Shown piece after piece: positions 6,377-64,000 of a DNA stretch of 64,000 nt. Position 1 is the stretch's first letter. Each line of letters starts with the position of its first letter. The notes under the pieces were generated by a model. It ran no database searches. It was not told the origin of the DNA and worked only from the letters and a program-made list of their open reading frames with translations. The stretch covers positions 2,142 through 66,141 of the forward strand of contig JBCNVF010000019.1 in the NCBI GenBank assembly GCA_039630355.1, given 5' to 3'. Origin of the DNA: Brevinematia bacterium (GTDB lineage: Bacteria > Spirochaetota > Brevinematia > DTOW01). A program made the position numbers and the translations under genes.

Positions 6377-7495
6377 TTAGTTTTTGAAAAATTCGTTGAT
6401 TTTGGTGTCAACAAAGTTCTTGAACTTAGATTTGAAGTTTTCTTCGGAGAACCTTTCGGCATTTTTTCTGACATCCTTGAAGTTTATCTTTTCTTGAATT
6501 TTTTCAAACTTACTTATGGCTTCTTTAAGACTCTCTACGGTTTGCTCATGGAAAAGGATACCGGTTTTACCATCTATTACACTTTCGGTAGCTCCACCTT
6601 TACCGAAAGCTATTACTGGGGTTCCGCAAGCCATTGCCTCAACTGGCATAATTCCAAAATCTTCTTCTGCTGCAAAGATAAATGCTTTTGCTTTCTGCAT
6701 ATAGCTTTTTAATACATCATTGGGTTGGTATCCAAGGATTTCTATGTTTCTTTTACCTCTCGCTATGCTTTTGACCTTTTCAAACTCAGGACCATCTCCT
6801 ATTACTACCAATTTCCTATCTGGAAGTTTTGCAAAGGTTTCAACAACAAGAGGTATCATTTTGTAAGGCACCATTCTTGAGGCTACTAGGTAAAACTCTT
6901 CTTTATCTTCGCTAAAAGAGAAGTTTTTCGTGTCAACGGGTGGGTAGATGACCTCTGCTTCCCTAGCGTAGATTTTTCTTATTCTTCTTGCGGTATAATT
7001 GGAGTTTGCAATAAAGTAGTTGACCCTGTTTATGGTAGAGAGGTCCCATATTCTTATGTAGTGGAGAATCAGTTTTGCTAGAAAGGCTTTTAGCCCTCTT
7101 TCTAGTTTTGCTTCTTTCAGGTATTGGTGATACAGGTCCCAGGCGTAGCGAATTGGGGTATGGCAATAGCAGATATGTAATTGATAATGTCTGGTTATAA
7201 CTCCTTTGGCTACTGCGTGCGATGAAGAGATTATCACATCGTAATTTGAAAGATCAAACTGCTCTATTGCTAGGGGGAATAAAGCTAAATAGTTTCTATA
7301 CTTTTTCTGGGCAAATGGCAATTTTGAAATAAACGATTGCTGTGTTTTTTCAGGAGGAATTCCTAGTTTGTTGAGAGTTTCATTGTTGGAGATTAAGCAA
7401 AAGACGTCCGAAGGGTACAGTTCATAAATTGACTTTAGAACTCTTTCAGCTCCAGCAAATGTTACTAACCAGTCTGCAACTATTGAGAACTTCAT
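6377..7495 (-). CDS. Glycosyltransferase family 4 (GT1-fold, retaining)
   Basis: 372 aa; C-terminal E-x7-E region DFGIMPVEAMACGTPVIAF typical of GT4 (Glycos_transf_1). Confidence 0.8.
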   Translation of the reverse strand: MKFSIVADWLVTFAGAERVLKSIYELYPSDVFCLISNNETLNKLGIPPEKTQQSFISKLPFAQKKYRNYLALFPLAIEQFDLSNYDVIISSSHAVAKGVITRHYQLHICYCHTPIRYAWDLYHQYLKEAKLERGLKAFLAKLILHYIRIWDLSTINRVNYFIANSNYTARRIRKIYAREAEVIYPPVDTKNFSFSEDKEEFYLVASRMVPYKMIPLVVETFAKLPDRKLVVIGDGPEFEKVKSIARGKRNIEILGYQPNDVLKSYMQKAKAFIFAAEEDFGIMPVEAMACGTPVIAFGKGGATESVIDGKTGILFHEQTVESLKEAISKFEKIQEKINFKDVRKNAERFSEENFKSKFKNFVDTKINEFFKN

Positions 7496-8262: not shown

Positions 8263-8484
8263 AAGAGAGTGAATAAATTCCGATTTTGGTTTGTAACTAG
8301 GCAAGATTCTAGACTTTTTGCTTATACTCTCTTTGGTTCCACATAGCGCTTGTTTTAATCGCAAGATTTCATCTTACACCAAGCCTCTTAGGTGCTTGCT
8401 AAGGGAAGTGCTTACTTAGCTCCGACAGGGACTGCGAGAAAAATAGAGAGAAGACTACTTCTAGTTGTAAGTTTTGGACTTTAC
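8263..8484 (+). repeat. Type-1 intergenic repeat element, full copy A (about 220 bp)
   Basis: Aligns over its whole length with 13024-13224 and 51417-51636. Shared blocks: TTCCAATTTCC, AACTTTTTGCTTACTTA-CCTCTTTGTTTCTAG, CTTCACCTAA, CCTCTTATGTGCTT-AAGAAGAG, GAGAAAAATA-A-AGAA-AC. Confidence 0.8.
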
Positions 8485-8582
8485 TGACTTCAGTTAAATC
8501 TGAAGTTTGTAGCAGAGTTTGGTAAGAATTAAAGTGAAATAACCTCCTCTTGCCCTTAAAATAAAGGCAAAAGGAGGAATAT

Positions 8583-8660
8583 ATGAATAACAAAAAAACT
8601 ATAAATCGCTTCATCAAAAACTTTCTACTTAACTTTTATCCAAGCTCAGGAAGAAGATAG
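8583..8660 (+). CDS. Conserved 25-aa small ORF (MNNKKTINRFIKNFLLNFYPSSGRR) inside type-2 element; coding status unproven
   Basis: AGGAGG lies 7 nt upstream of ATG and is sequestered by the upstream anti-SD. The N-terminal 17 codons are conserved with the copy at 58157 (MN[ND]KK[TI][IV]N[RH]FIKN[FL]LL); the C-terminus is frame-shifted between the two copies. Confidence 0.25.
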   Translation: MNNKKTINRFIKNFLLNFYPSSGRR

Positions 8661-8783
8661 TAGAAGTTGTTCTTGCAATCATTCTCTCTGGAAGCTTGAG
8701 GATATCTAGGGTATCTCTCAGCAGCAGGAAGAGGGAATAGTCAAGGTATTCAGAATACTTTTTCACAAAAAAATACCAAACTC

Positions 8784-8812
8784 TTGACCAAACTTCAGGT
8801 TAAATTTATTGA
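8784..8812 (+). promoter_or_regulatory. sigma70-like promoter at 3' end of type-2 element (TTGACC-17 nt-TATTGA) reading into ftsZ
   Basis: -35 TTGACC, 17-nt spacer, -10 TATTGA. The same architecture is conserved at 58376-58404 (TTAACT-17 nt-TATTGA). Confidence 0.4.
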
Positions 8813-8872
8813 AAATCGTTTTTTATTGTTTTACAATACTTGAGTAAAGTTTTTGGGATGGGAGGGGTTTAT

Positions 8873-10090
8873 ATGTATGACTTTGATGAGAATCCAACTA
8901 ATATAAAGGTAGTGGGAGTTGGTGGGGCTGGATGTAATGCTGTTGATAGGATGATAGGGGCAGGTGTTAAGAATGTGGATTTCATTGCGATAAATACTGA
9001 TGTCCAAGCGCTTGCGAAGAGTCTAGCTCCTACGAAGATACAGATAGGTCAGAAGATAACCAAAGGATTTGGGGCAGGGGCTGATCCGAGAGTAGGTGAG
9101 GAGTCTGCAAATGAGGATAGGGATATCATATACGATGCCCTTAGAGGAGCGGATATGGTTTTTATCACTTGTGGTATGGGAGGAGGAACAGGAACTGGTG
9201 CTGCACCTGTGATTGCTCAGATATCAAAGGAGATAGGAGCGTTAACAGTAGCAGTTGTTACTAAGCCTTTTCTAGTTGAAGGAAAAAAAAGAGCGGATAG
9301 GGCAGAGGAAGGTATAAAAAAGCTTAGGCAATACATTGATACCATAATAGTAATACCGAATCAGAATCTTTTTAAGGTTATTGACAAAAAAACTCCTCTC
9401 GTTCAAGCTTTTCTCAAAGCCGATGAAGTGCTAATGCATGCTATTCAGGGGATGTCAGATATAATCACTAAACCGGGCCTTATAAATGTTGATTTTGCTG
9501 ATGTAAAAACTGTGCTTAGGGAAGGAGGTGAGGCATTGATGGGAATCGGTGTAGATTCTGATCCTAAGTCTGTTGCTCAAAAAGCAATAAATAATCCTCT
9601 TGTTGACAACATCTCATTTAGAGGGGCGAAGGCTGTTCTTGTCAACATTTCTGGTGGAAGTAAGCTTTCTCTTGATGATGTTAATATCATAATGGAAACT
9701 ATAAATGAGACAGCAGATAAGGAAGCTAACATCATAATGGGAGCTTGCCCTGATGAAACTATGGGTGAGCAAATAAGGGTTGTAGTTATTGCTACGGGTT
9801 TCTCTTCCTTAGCTTCAGAAGCAAGTTCTAAAATGCATCAGCAGATTAGTGGGGATGGTAAGGAAGAAAAGGAAGTTTCCAAAATGGGAGAAGGTGGAGT
9901 TAAAGTTATACCGGGAATAGGCAAAATTGTATCTAGGCAAGATTTTCTGTCAAAGCGCAAAGGGCTTAGATCTTTTGAAGAAACTATTAAGGAGGTATAT
10001 GATCCTTCAACTCCAGCAATTTTAAGGAAGAATAAACTGGCTTCTTATTTCCAATTAGGTGATGAAGATGAGTTATCTAATAGTTTTTGA
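8873..10090 (+). CDS. ftsZ: Cell division GTPase FtsZ (start at ATG 8873 preferred over TTG 8840)
   Basis: [24 protein letters not shown] and [10 protein letters not shown] tubulin signature. GGGAGGGG SD lies 6 nt upstream of 8873. Not adjacent to ftsA. Confidence 0.93.
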
Positions 10091-12935: not shown

Positions 12936-13023
12936 AGGCTTTCCTCCGGTTGTATTAGCAAAAATTATAAAAAACACCTTGAATTTGCTTCAAATTAGTC
13001 TTCAAGTAGGTGATAAATTCCAA

Positions 13024-13224
13024 TTTCCGTTAAGTGATTAGATGAGATTCAACTTTTTGCTTACTTACCCTCTTTGTTTCTAGGTAATCTTCTTCAGTTA
13101 TGAGACTTCACCTTAACCAAACCTCTTATGTGCTTATCAAGAAGAGTGTTCTCCTTCAGTTCTAGTAGGTGTTGTGAGAAAAATAAAAGAAAAACAGTGC
13201 TTAATTGTTAAGTTTTGAAATTCA
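13024..13224 (+). repeat. Type-1 intergenic repeat element, full copy B
   Basis: Collinear alignment with copies A and D (see 8263-8484). Confidence 0.8.
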
Positions 13225-13310
13225 TTGTCAAGTGAGTAGTATTTATGGGCTAAGTGAGATCCTTTTTTGTTAGTTGTGGTTGTGCTATATGAGAAATGAG
13301 TTGTGTATCT

Positions 13311-16494: not shown

Positions 16495-16568
16495 CACAAG
16501 AGCTACAAGATAAGAATATTATGAATGCCTAGATTTCAATAATTCAAGAAAAAATGGTGTCTTCCAAT

Positions 16569-16650
16569 GAGTTCCAATTTCCATTAGGTAAGTAGATAAA
16601 ATTCAACTTTTTGTTTACTTACACTCTTTGCTTCTAGGCTAAGCATTTTC
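16569..16650 (+). repeat. Type-1 repeat element, 5' partial copy C
   Basis: GAGTTCCAATTTCCATTAGG...AACTTTTTGTTTACTTACACTCTTTGCTTCTAG matches the first about 90 bp of the type-1 consensus. Confidence 0.65.
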
Positions 16651-18604: not shown

Positions 18605-18700
18605 TGCTTTCTCTTTCTACGTCTCTTGCAGTCCCTGTCGGGACTGGGTGAATACTTTTCTCTAACATATACTACCTAGAGTCAGAGAAAGTAAGCATAT
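18605..18700 (-). repeat. Type-1 repeat fragment F (3' portion, inverted) carrying the perfect hairpin CAGTCCC-TGTC-GGGACTG (18629-18646)
   Basis: Reverse complement aligns to the GAGAAAAATAAAAG end of type-1. Shares CTCGCAGTCCCTG-N-CGGGACTGGGTGA with 62745-62773. Confidence 0.55.
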
Positions 18701-28828: not shown

Positions 28829-29214
28829 ACCTCCTTTACATTCTTTATTTTATTTATCAGGCTTAACGTTGTCAAGAAAATTTTCTCTAGAATACTATAT
28901 TTTGGGTGTTTGATCTCTTCTCTTTTGTTGATAAGTTCAAGTTTGGAAATTTTTTTGCTTTTCTGTTAATGCAGAGAGTGAGACTGTAGCAATAGGTTCT
29001 AGAGTTTAATGATTGGGTATAGTTTTTCTTTCACTTTTCTTGCATTTTCTCTCAGGATTGGGTAAAATAGTTTTCTTAGTGAAGTCCGGAGGCTGTGTAG
29101 AGTGAGATATAAAATTAGACTTTGCTGGTAAGAGGATTTCATTTTTAATATTATGGAGGGTTTGTATTAGAATTTCGTTATCGTAGAGCGAAGAAGTAAG
29201 GAGAGTATAAGACT

Positions 29215-40722: not shown

Positions 40723-41067
40723 ATTTTTCTATTTTAATCAAAACGTAAGTCTTTTGGCAATTTGGGCTCTAATTGGTGGCAGTAACTTCCAAAATTTGTA
40801 GTTAGAGAATAGTTCTCTTTTCACTACTCTCACAATCTTTATCGGAGCTAGGTAAATACTTTTTCTCAACGAGCATTTGAGACTTGGCATGAAGTAGAGT
40901 TTTGTGACCGACAAACACTATCTAGAAACAAAGAGAGGAGGTAAACAAAAAGTTTAGAATTTTTTCTATCACCTAATGGAAATCGGAATTTGTTGTTGGT
41001 GAGTAGCGGTTAAGTTGAATTTTATGGGGTAGCTTGTCTAAAATTTTTAGGCTTGAAAGAGGAGTTT

Positions 41068-51416: not shown

Positions 51417-51636
51417 ATAAGTTCCAATTTCCATTACTTCCACTAGGTGAGAAAGCAAGATTCCGAACTTTTCGCTTACTTAACCTCTTTGTTTCTAGAT
51501 AGTCTTCTTGAGTTACAAAGCTTCACCTAAATCGAGCTTCTTATGTGCTTGTTAAGAAGAGTATTCCTTTGGTCCAGATGGGTATTGCAAGGGAAATAAA
51601 AGAAAGACATGCCTGATTGTTGAATTTTAGAATTCA
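51417..51636 (+). repeat. Type-1 intergenic repeat element, full copy D
   Basis: Collinear with copies A and B; about 75-80% identity. Confidence 0.8.
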
Positions 51637-51710
51637 TCGGCATTGTAGTTAATTAACTTGAATCGGTATTTGGGGTTTTTGTATTATTTTTAGCATTCTG
51701 GAGGTGTTTT

Positions 51711-52469
51711 ATGGGATTGATGGAAGGTAAGAGGGGAGTTGTTTTTGGTGTTGCTAACAAATGGAGTATTGCGTGGGCAATATCAAAGTCACTGCATAGA
51801 GAGAAGGCAGAGATACTTCTTTCCTACTTAGGTGAAGAAGATAAAATCAAGGAATTAGCCAGTGAAATTAATGCAAAGATTTTTCCATGTGATGTTTCAA
51901 AGGATGAAGATATTGTGAGGCTTTTTGAATTCGTTGGTAGAGAGTTTGGAAAGATTGATTTTATTGTGCACTCAATTGCTTTTGCTCCAAGGGAGGCACT
52001 ACAGGGAAGATATATTGATACCACTAGAGAGGCATTTAGAATCGCACTTGATATAAGTGCTTATTCTCTTGTCAAGATTGTCAAAGAGGCAGAGAAGTAT
52101 TTGAATGACAACTCTGCCATAGTTACTATGACTTACCTTGGCTCTGTCAGAGCGGTTCCGAACTACAACGTTATGGGTGTTGCAAAAGCTGCGCTTGAGT
52201 CTAGTGTAAGATACATCGCTTACGACCTAGGTTCAAGAGGTATAAGGTGTAATGCAATTTCTGCAGGACCAATAAAAACATTAGCTGCTAGAGGTATAAG
52301 TGGATTTATGAGTATGTATGAAGAGTATCCTAAAAGATCTGCACTCAAGCGAAACGTAAGTGCGGAGGAAGTAGCAGAAACTGCTCTGTTTCTTTTAAGT
52401 AACCTCTCTTCTGGAATAACTGGTGAGGTTATATACGTGGACGCTGGGTATGAAATAATGGGAATGTAG
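51711..52469 (+). CDS. fabI: Enoyl-[acyl-carrier-protein] reductase (NADH)
   Basis: GKRGVVFGVANKWSIAWAI Rossmann region, with catalytic Tyr and Lys spaced as in FabI. Confidence 0.9.
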   Translation: MGLMEGKRGVVFGVANKWSIAWAISKSLHREKAEILLSYLGEEDKIKELASEINAKIFPCDVSKDEDIVRLFEFVGREFGKIDFIVHSIAFAPREALQGRYIDTTREAFRIALDISAYSLVKIVKEAEKYLNDNSAIVTMTYLGSVRAVPNYNVMGVAKAALESSVRYIAYDLGSRGIRCNAISAGPIKTLAARGISGFMSMYEEYPKRSALKRNVSAEEVAETALFLLSNLSSGITGEVIYVDAGYEIMGM

Positions 52470-58061: not shown

Positions 58062-58410
58062 AGAAGAGATAGAGCAAGTTTGTAGGAGAGTTTGGTGAAA
58101 ATTAAAGTGAAAGGACTTCCTCTTACCTTGTAAGATAAAAGCAAGAGGAGGAATGTATGAATGACAAGAAAATTGTAAATCACTTTATCAAAAACCTTCT
58201 ACTTGACCTTCCATCCAAACTCAGGAAGAAGATAGCGAAAGTTGTTCTCTTACATTCTTCTACCTTTAGGTAAGGCAGGTATGCTAGGGTTAGGAGGGGA
58301 AGGTTTGAGGATTGCTTGGATGAGTTATGAACACGGGGTATTCAGAATACTTTCTCACAAAAAAGTACCAAACTCTTAACTAAGCTTCAGTTAAAAAATA
58401 TTGAAATTTC
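58062..58410 (+). repeat. Type-2 composite leader element, copy 2, upstream of ABC permease gene
   Basis: Collinear with 8503-8826. Anti-SD CTTCCTCTTAC paired with GCAAGAGGAGG (compensatory change relative to copy 1); small ORF 58157-58273; promoter TTAACT-17-TATTGA at 58376-58404. Confidence 0.8.
58157..58273 (+). CDS. Conserved small ORF, copy 2 (38 aa: MNDKKIVNHFIKNLLLDLPSKLRKKIAKVVLLHSSTFR); coding status unproven
   Basis: Same AGGAGG-N7-ATG context and sequestering hairpin as 8583-8660; cationic amphipathic peptide. Confidence 0.25.
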   Translation: MNDKKIVNHFIKNLLLDLPSKLRKKIAKVVLLHSSTFR

Positions 58411-58457
58411 ATGTTTAAACCTTTTTAATTATATCTAGCAGATGCGGAGGTATTGGT

Positions 58458-62729: not shown

Positions 62730-62830
62730 AATGGTTTTTCTTTTTTCTCGCAGTCCCTGACGGGACTGGGTGAGTGGTTTCTTATGAATACTTTCTCGGT
62801 AGGTTTAGTGGGCTTGATGGAGAGTGGTTT
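62730..62830 (-). repeat. Type-1 repeat fragment G (3' portion, inverted on + strand; forward relative to leuC) with hairpin CAGTCCC-TGAC-GGGACTG (62751-62768)
   Basis: TTTTTCTCGCAGTCCCTGACGGGACTGGGTGAGTGG matches 18618-18652 and the reverse complement of 8440-8470. Confidence 0.55.
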
Positions 62831-63706: not shown

Positions 63707-63756
63707 CTGCATATCTCTCGTAAGAAATAAACTTACCTTCATCGCTTCTCATTCTT

Positions 63757-64000
63757 GTTTCAATCCCTAAAAGGACAGGTAAAAACAATAATGGAAGTGA
63801 AGAAATATGACAAAAAACAAGCGTTGTTTCAATCCCTAAAAGGGCAGGTAAAAACAAAAACCTCCGAAGAAGGTAAGGATTGCTGTTCAAAGTTTCAATC
63901 CCTAAAAGGGCAGGTAAAAACTTCTCGGTTTGTTTCATTTCTTGTTGCTTTATTTTCAGGTTTCAATCCCTAAAAGGGTAGGTAAAAACAATAAAGGGGT
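63757..64000 (-). CRISPR. CRISPR array (4 repeats in window, runs off the window end). Repeat GTTTCAATCCCTAAAAGG[AG]CAGGTAAAAAC, 30 bp; spacers of 39, 36 and 38 bp.
   Basis: Repeats at 63757-63786, 63826-63855, 63892-63921 and 63960-63989, with unique spacers. Minus-strand reading ends ...ATTGAAAC (canonical 8-nt 5'-handle source), so crRNA transcription is probably right-to-left with the leader beyond 64000. Confidence 0.9.

Follow-up and report, generated by a model that had tools for sequence, protein, structure and literature searches.

The locus studied here lies in a 64-kb stretch of DNA (37.8% G+C; hereafter, the window) from a metagenome-assembled genome (MAG) of a Brevinematia bacterium. 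The FtsZ protein that it encodes is 100% identical to one from this MAG (Spirochaetota; locus-tag prefix ABDH28). The intergenic region upstream of ftsZ (8873 to 10090) measures 663 bp in this genome and holds a 299-bp element (copy 1; 8500 to 8798, plus strand). A related stretch (copy 2; 58073 to 58390, plus strand; about 318 bp) lies 49.6 kb away, upstream of a gene for a MalF-like permease. Both copies contain terminal inverted repeats, a hairpin that pairs with the Shine-Dalgarno (SD) sequence of a small open reading frame (ORF), and a short palindrome. The two stretches are likely copies of a lineage-specific, non-autonomous or degenerate transposable element, either a MITE (miniature inverted-repeat transposable element) or a deletion derivative of an insertion sequence (IS). 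Their family is new and of an ordinary kind; they are neither toxins nor leaders dedicated to one gene. The first-pass annotation of this DNA had favored a portable or mobile module over a gene-specific riboswitch, and this view is strengthened by the inverted repeats, by a direct repeat that flanks copy 1, by the presence of at least nine copies, and by the absence of the element from the orthologous loci of relatives.

A blastn comparison within the window aligned positions 8503 to 8814 with 58076 to 58406 at 75% identity over 335 columns (E = 6e-54). The duplication, originally put at about 80% identity, is thus real, with the overall figure somewhat lower and with 78 to 91% identity outside a diverged center. 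By segment, the copies share 80% identity in the left end and 5' untranslated region (UTR), 78% in the hairpin, 81% across the SD spacer and ORF codons 1 to 31, 51% (with indels) in the center, and 91% in the right end, which is the best-conserved part. Repeat searches and blastn with either copy revealed no third copy in the window. The ends of copy 1 were set by its inverted repeats and the flanking direct repeat, and it is homologous to 58076 to 58390 of copy 2, which belongs to a subfamily with a different center and has a decayed left terminus. The boundaries initially drawn included approximately 20 to 28 nt of native promoter DNA beyond the right end of the repeat; the best coordinates are 8500 to 8798 and about 58073 to 58390.

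The terminal inverted repeats of copy 1 lie at 8500 to 8524 (plus strand; CTGAAGTTTGTAGCAGAGTTTGGTA) and at 8774 to 8798 (minus strand; TACCAAACTCTTGACCAAACTTCAG), the latter including a TTGACC motif that had been read as part of a promoter. A repeat search extended these arms to 8494 to 8524 and 8774 to 8804 (31 nt, 81% complementary). The repeats are imperfect and finish in CTGAAG and CTTCAG. In copy 2, the core of the left repeat lies at 58087 to 58096 (plus strand; AGAGTTTGGT) and the right repeat lies at 58366 to 58390 (minus strand; TACCAAACTCTTAACTAAGCTTCAG); here, the 10-nt core is perfect and the outer part of the repeat has decayed. The inverted-repeat score was reached by none of 2,000 shuffled sequences for copy 1 and by 14 of 2,000 for copy 2. 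The core 10-mer, AGAGTTTGGT, occurs four times in the 64 kb (0.18 expected), solely at the four element ends and inverted at the right ends. Every inverted repeat contains AGTTTG twice, 12 nt apart. The left arms are alike across copies, and so are the right arms, so the ancestor already had imperfect repeats (approximately 21 of 25 positions matching). We also considered arms that reach out to TTCAA and TTGAA, which would place TATTGAAA inside the element, and rejected them: relatives that have no element carry TATTGAAA in their ftsZ promoter.

When copy 1 is taken as CTGAAG...CTTCAG, a perfect 7-bp repeat, GTTAAAT, stands on either side of it. This putative target-site duplication adjoins the left end at 8493 to 8499 and the right end at 8799 to 8805, and the right-hand copy fits the A/T-rich DNA found upstream of the -35 hexamer in relatives.

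Next, we built a profile from the frame-corrected peptides and found seven further copies of the small ORF in the same MAG, on seven other contigs, all annotated as "hypothetical proteins." Together with the two unannotated copies in the window, there are at least nine copies on eight contigs. The annotated copies are P0126 (100 amino acids [aa]; ABDH28_02900), P0125 (73 aa; ABDH28_03885), P0121 (63 aa, cut short by the end of its contig; ABDH28_05635), P0124 (44 aa; ABDH28_07100), P0128 (72 aa; ABDH28_07195), P0122 (60 aa; ABDH28_07885), and P0123 (42 aa; ABDH28_08005). All copies have in common MNxRKTINHFIKNFLLDLPSKLRKKI.EVVL, which is followed in most by AITLSGSLRISR and then by divergence through frameshifts or indels. 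Over 63 residues, P0126 matches P0121 at 94% identity. The P0126 ORF extends through the entire element, and its tail (...KKYQTLDQTSA) is the translated right inverted repeat; P0125 reads the same DNA as this tail in another frame. Set against the 100-aa P0126 ORF, copy 1 has lost 1 nt, which shifts the frame, contains one stop codon, and lacks approximately 30 internal codons. Copy 2 falls in the same subfamily as P0125, and its center translates to PLGKAGMLGLGGEGLRIAW.

The copy number and the shape of the homology bear on the simplest alternative, in which plain duplicated DNA with no mobility arose when a segment was duplicated or when two intergenic regions underwent gene conversion. The two DNA copies inspected, with their 75% identity and scrambled center, could have arisen in this way. 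We regard such an origin as very unlikely, since homology ends abruptly at the inverted repeats (identity falls to a background level of 46% in the left flanks), the flanking genes are unrelated, and there are at least nine copies dispersed over eight contigs. The peptide matches already point to further copies in unrelated contexts.

Outside this MAG, no member of the ORF family was found among 5.8 billion protein clusters or 1.84 billion representatives. A phmmer search of the 1.84 billion representatives with P0126 returned its own family and two giant repeat proteins, whose summed weak matches we judged spurious. The ORF matched nothing in Pfam, NCBIfam, or PDB, and no larger homologue of the longest family ORF (100 aa) was found there or among the protein representatives. 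Scans with peptide patterns detected no relative in 185,579 species genomes, JGI metagenomes, or viral contigs. The DNA pattern of the left end had zero matches in the species genomes, that of the right end had one chance match on a high-GC metagenome contig, L009, and the plasmid collection contained no match to the element. The idea that the ORF is the N terminus of a known transposase was not supported by the phmmer, Pfam, NCBIfam, or PDB searches.

We then examined the small ORF in the two window copies. In copy 2, it runs from 58157 to 58273 (plus strand; 38 codons) and is absent from the annotated proteins of the public collection. In copy 1, a remnant of 25 codons remains (8583 to 8660, plus strand), frame-shifted after codon 17; its corrected frame reads LLSKLRKKIVEVVLAIILSGSLRISR, as in other copies. 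The conservation of the first 17 codons and the shifted 3' end, both noticed in the first-pass annotation, were borne out. The shift is a 1-nt indel, and copy 1 is the shifted one, since all eight other known copies read ...DLPSKLRKKI.... The initiation region is canonical (AGGAGG-N5-ATG). Across the nine copies, the N-terminal 31 residues are near-invariant (residue 3 is hypervariable), and the C termini differ by frameshift or indel in every copy. Between copies 1 and 2, we counted 4 synonymous and 9 non-synonymous codon differences, against a rough neutral expectation of about 1:3. The peptides carry a net charge of +6 to +10. Kyte-Doolittle hydrophobicity over 19 residues peaks at no more than 1.2 in the conserved part, which has no membrane-spanning stretch, and at no more than 1.6 in the nonconserved tails. 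An AlphaFold2 model of the ORF was unconfident (pLDDT 50). The ORF shows no selection at the peptide level: the noncoding ends match or exceed the ORF in conservation (80% and 91% versus 81%), the codon differences are near neutral, and the C termini shift.

These data weigh on the idea that the copies are a real family of small-protein genes encoding cationic, helical proteins of 40 to 100 aa, perhaps DNA or RNA binding, each with a conserved 5' UTR. The SD hairpin would then gate translation (for example, in response to temperature or a trans-acting RNA), duplication or a mobile cassette would account for the spread of the family, and the window copies would have decayed. Such a family would account for the canonical AGGAGG-N5-ATG start, the near-invariant N termini of nine copies, the 94% identity of P0126 and P0121 over 63 residues with a P0126 ORF that spans the element, and the seven copies called as genes by the NCBI annotation. 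It is unlikely nonetheless. The proteins have no homologues outside this MAG in the collections searched, no family or structure match, and a model with a pLDDT of 50. Almost every C terminus is frame-shifted, with copy 1 stopping at 25 codons; the ratio of codon differences looks neutral, with the noncoding right end as the best-conserved part; and terminal inverted repeats are unexpected for ordinary genes.

In both copies, the sequence upstream of the ORF folds into the anti-SD/SD helix that had been proposed from inspection. In copy 1, the hairpin (8543 to 8577, plus strand; SD sequence at 8572 to 8577) pairs CCTCCT with the AGGAGG of the SD sequence and has a predicted energy of -17.2 kcal/mol (z = -5.2); in copy 2, the same stem is predicted (58115 to 58156, plus strand; SD sequence at 58146 to 58151; -13.5 kcal/mol; z = -2.4). 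As described before, a C/A mismatch in copy 1 is a C-G pair in copy 2, in which other pairs are broken. In total, two mismatches are repaired and two pairs are broken between the copies, with no two-sided compensatory change in this comparison of two sequences. Copy 1 also has a promoter-like site inside the element (8534 to 8562, plus strand; GTGAAA-17-TAAAAT; 9 of 12 consensus matches), the -10 hexamer of which falls in the hairpin loop and which may be functional; the counterpart read from the sequence of copy 2 is GTGAAA-18-TAAGAT. Folding further predicts that the left inverted repeat pairs with ORF codons 12 to 18 in both copies. A search of Rfam gave no match at gathering or permissive thresholds (E values up to 1), including to toxin and antitoxin RNA families.

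A consensus scan also detected a minus-strand promoter-like site that covers the start codon of the small ORF, at a homologous position in both copies (8605 to 8578, TTTATA-16-TATATT, in copy 1; 58179 to 58152, TTTACA-16-TACATT, in copy 2). It would drive transcription outward via the left end, which at copy 2 is toward a Maf-like gene. The start of that gene is approximately 50 nt from copy 2, and no promoter of its own was seen in the gap.

The combination of a sequestered SD sequence and a short ORF is shared with type I toxin mRNAs and leader-peptide attenuators, and both were suggested at first. If this were a type I toxin-antitoxin module, a toxin controlled by an antisense RNA would be encoded by the small ORF; the minus-strand promoter-like site over the start codon in both copies and the multicopy nature of the locus, as for many type I loci, would agree with this. 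The peptide differs from type I toxins, however, in being cationic and not hydrophobic, with no membrane helix in its conserved part. The integrity of the ORF has been lost (neither its length nor its C terminus is conserved, and copy 1 is frame-shifted), and the codon differences are near neutral. Toxin-antitoxin loci are not characterized by inverted repeats and a flanking direct repeat, Rfam gave no match to a toxin or antitoxin family, and the putative antisense RNA is represented by a consensus-level promoter match. We therefore hold a toxin-antitoxin module to be highly improbable.

The palindrome GTATTCAGAATAC, followed by T5, lies at 8745 to 8757 and is identical in both copies, in agreement with the first description. 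As an RNA hairpin, it is predicted at only -3.6 and -2.8 kcal/mol, no better than shuffled sequences, and the T run is interrupted in copy 2. We rejected it as a terminator on the basis of folding energy. The palindrome is more likely a protein-binding site or a relic than a terminator.

To place the element relative to the neighboring genes, we compared the window with the ftsZ loci of relatives (FtsZ 78 to 85% identical) and with one malF locus (L010; 79% identical), in about 150 kb of fetched DNA that includes several nearly identical loci. These approximately 150 kb, the ftsZ and malF loci included, contained no copy of the element. At this level of protein identity (78 to 85%), the relatives are too distant for a nucleotide-exact empty site. 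The ftsZ intergenic region is 115 to 366 bp long in relatives compared with 663 bp in the window, and the malF region is about 420 bp in the relative compared with 436 bp in the window.

Both genes have a native promoter outside the element, between it and the gene. That of ftsZ lies at 8809 to 8837 (plus strand; TTGAAA-17-TACAAT; 10 of 12 consensus matches), and that of the malF-like gene lies at 58401 to 58429 (plus strand; TTGAAA-17-TTTAAT). In four ftsZ upstream sequences, from the window and three element-free relatives, TATTGAAA-N17-TA(C/T)AAT is invariant; TTTTA.AAT is also invariant in the ftsZ upstream regions of the three element-free relatives. L010 has TTGAAA-N17-TTTAAT in common with the window, together with a different upstream gene and no element. 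The promoter TTGACC/TTAACT-17-TATTGA that had been assigned to the repeat does not hold up: its motifs are present, but TTGACC belongs to the right inverted repeat and TATTGA overlaps the native -35 hexamer, TTGAAA.

The position of these promoters bears on the case of a cis-regulatory leader, that is, a leader-peptide attenuator or translational switch for ftsZ and the permease operon. Each copy is directly upstream of a gene, in the same orientation, and has a short ORF with hairpins, as a leader would. Because each gene is separated from the element by its conserved native promoter, with both genes keeping their ancestral promoters 10 nt downstream of it, neither copy would be in the ftsZ or malF mRNA leader. 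These promoters are kept in relatives that have no element, which places the element outside the normal transcript. After the ORF, there is no credible terminator or antiterminator, as the sole hairpin with a U run is very weak. None of the relatives examined has the element upstream of ftsZ or malF, and seven more copies lie on seven other contigs of the MAG. The leader explanation, including the attenuator form of it, is thus largely refuted, and we give it almost no weight. As outlined above, the element also differs from attenuators and from type I toxin mRNAs in its inverted repeats, its many dispersed copies, and its position upstream of the promoters of its neighbors.

We also rebuilt an empty site by removing the element and one repeat (8400 to 8499 joined to 8806 to 8875). 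The joined sequence aligned collinearly with a paralogous locus at 51545 to 51715, with a score of 26.5; on its own, the left part scored 17 and the right part scored 13.5. The reconstruction hints at an insertion without settling the matter.

On the right-hand side of the two insertion sites, the gene order (promoter plus ftsZ; promoter plus malF and malG) is common to relatives L001 to L008 and L010. The left neighbor of ftsZ varies by genome (a UMP-kinase-like gene, H+-PPase, M16 peptidase, or PdxJ), as does that of malF (Maf or GH57), and these variable neighbors therefore mark synteny breakpoints just upstream of the promoters. In L010, a 45-codon ORF lies just upstream of malF (7033 to 7170; MFKCVEMGVGVKVW...); it is unlike the ORF of the element and is probably a spurious call.

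In both copies, the last base of the element (8798 and 58390) is exactly 10 nt from the first base of the native TTGAAA (8809 and 58401), in the same orientation. The intervening DNA is GTTAAATTTA and TTAAAAAATA, and both insertions are in DNA that contains TTAAA and lies where an UP element would be. The shared offset may reflect a preference for A/T-rich, TTAAA-containing target DNA, survivorship at the nearest harmless site, or coincidence. A bolder reading is that the element is promoter seeking, i.e., targeted to or retained at a fixed position of sigma-70 promoters and perhaps rewiring them through outward-directed motifs or through its own cationic protein of approximately 100 aa. This protein may bind the AGTTTG repeats and may still be functional in the most intact copies. 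We give this reading only an outside chance. The common 10-nt offset is the sole unusual feature of the family, and it could gain wider interest if it also held for the other copies; should promoter seeking be true, the element would target or be retained at a fixed promoter position and could rewire promoters.

The features described above are those of MITEs: small size, inverted repeats, dispersed copies, no transposase gene, and absence from orthologous sites; a perfect 7-bp direct repeat, the putative target duplication, flanks copy 1. Prokaryotic MITEs typically occupy intergenic DNA, are frequently located upstream of genes, and may contain promoters or ORFs (PMC10969869). Type I MITEs, such as the Correia elements of Neisseria and MITEAba12 of Acinetobacter, are derivatives of IS elements by internal deletion. 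The element resembles prokaryotic MITEs in its length of approximately 300 to 380 bp, its imperfect inverted repeats and short direct repeat, its many dispersed copies in one lineage, its intergenic position just upstream of genes, its A/T-rich insertion sites, its internal sigma-70-like motifs, and its lack of a transposase (PMC10969869, PMC3184786). Unlike for type I MITEs, no parent IS or matching transposase was identified; a parent IS is needed solely for type I MITEs and not for MITEs as a class (PMC10969869). The element further departs from MITEs in keeping a complete translation-initiation region with an ORF able to span its whole length and in the equal distance of both inspected copies from the -35 hexamer, in the same orientation.

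We infer from the sequence that the family consists of MITE-like deletion derivatives of an unsampled IS that were mobilized in trans. The miniature-IS reading follows from the layout, which consists of an inverted repeat, a 5' UTR, a strong SD sequence, and an ORF that ends at the far inverted repeat. Judging from P0126, a fuller form would be about 380 bp long, with a left inverted repeat of approximately 25 nt, an 80-nt 5' UTR, a strong SD sequence locked in a hairpin, and an ORF of approximately 100 codons. This ORF would run into the right inverted repeat and stop in flanking DNA, as would a miniature IS with a transposase gene minus its middle. A transposase acting in trans, or an extinct or unassembled parent IS, would have recognized the AGTTTG-containing inverted repeats, and the copies would have inserted in A/T-rich DNA just upstream of promoters, duplicating 7 bp. 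Any effect on ftsZ or malF would be indirect, by displacement of upstream A/T-rich DNA or by read-through or outward transcription.

The SD hairpin would most likely be the translational brake of the element itself, left from the control of a former transposase gene. Read-through transcripts from outside would carry the anti-SD arm and remain untranslated, whereas a transcript begun at the internal promoter-like site, with its -10 hexamer in the loop, would be without this arm. The hairpin fits, by analogy, the well-documented need of transposable elements for low transposase translation that is immune to outside transcription. The candidate internal promoter, the pairing of the left repeat, and the minus-strand site all derive from consensus scans and folding. 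In IS10 and IS50, fold-back inhibition protects from outside transcription. The element is similar in that its anti-SD arm lies upstream of the candidate internal -10 hexamer, and would so be carried by read-through transcripts alone, in that its ends begin with CTGA, and in the predicted pairing of the left repeat with ORF codons 12 to 18. It differs from these two in having no DDE transposase and a flanking repeat of 7 bp instead of 9 bp, and its promoter use is predicted. In IS200, a stem-loop in the 5' UTR sequesters the SD sequence of the transposase gene (tnpA), and the antisense RNA art200 is encoded opposite the 5' UTR (PMC4513863). The likeness lies in a strong SD sequence within a 5' UTR stem-loop just inside the left end and in an opposite-strand promoter-like site over the start codon. 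IS200, in contrast, has no terminal inverted repeats, no target duplication, and an HUH transposase, whereas the element has inverted repeats and a flanking repeat and lacks a transposase, which also sets it apart from the wider IS200/IS605 group. With no sequence or Rfam similarity to IS200, the analogy concerns how the hairpin may work and not membership.

Several points weigh against the transposable-element interpretation. An IS origin is unproven, and the movement of the element, like the roles of the hairpin and internal promoter, is read from sequence; no population polymorphism was seen. Searches of the window, the 185,579 species genomes, JGI metagenomes, viral contigs, and plasmids turned up no autonomous IS carrying these inverted repeats, and protein and contig searches did not yield a larger protein sharing the N terminus of the ORF. 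The evidence for target duplication is weak, as it comes from copy 1: the flanks of copy 2 (GCTAAAT and GTTAAAA) match at 5 of 7 positions, and only assuming a 12-nt insertion at the decayed left end. DNA was examined for two copies, with the other seven known as peptides alone. All nine known copies have 17 to 31 intact N-terminal codons, but a peptide search would miss copies with broken starts.

The seven ABDH28_ "hypothetical proteins" and the two window copies are best labeled as one repeat family, not as genes or riboswitch-like leaders. Lineage-specific bursts of such small repeats are a sign of recent change in the genomes of a little-known spirochete class and help explain breaks in MAG assemblies.

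The window contains further repeats. A second intergenic repeat family, unrelated to the element, has copies of approximately 200 to 230 nt (about 64% mean identity) at 8300 to 8490, 13013 to 13240, and 51420 to 51650 and a partial copy at 16567 to 16640. The first of these lies directly to the left of copy 1; two unrelated repeat elements thus sit side by side upstream of ftsZ, which explains the long intergenic region there. The copy at 51420 to 51650 ends just before a -35-like hexamer, TTGAAT. This family had no match in Rfam and no copy in the loci of the relatives. At the edge of the window, 63752 to 63997 is a CRISPR array with at least four repeats (GTTTCAATCCCTAAAAGGGCAGGTAAAAAC) at a spacing of 66 to 69 nt. 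A third short repeat family, a G+C-rich hairpin (TCTTGCAGTCCCTGTCGGGACTGGGTGAATACTTT) found at 18624 to 18658, 29038 to 29072, 40828 to 40862, and 62746 to 62780, is probably a shared terminator or a REP-like element.

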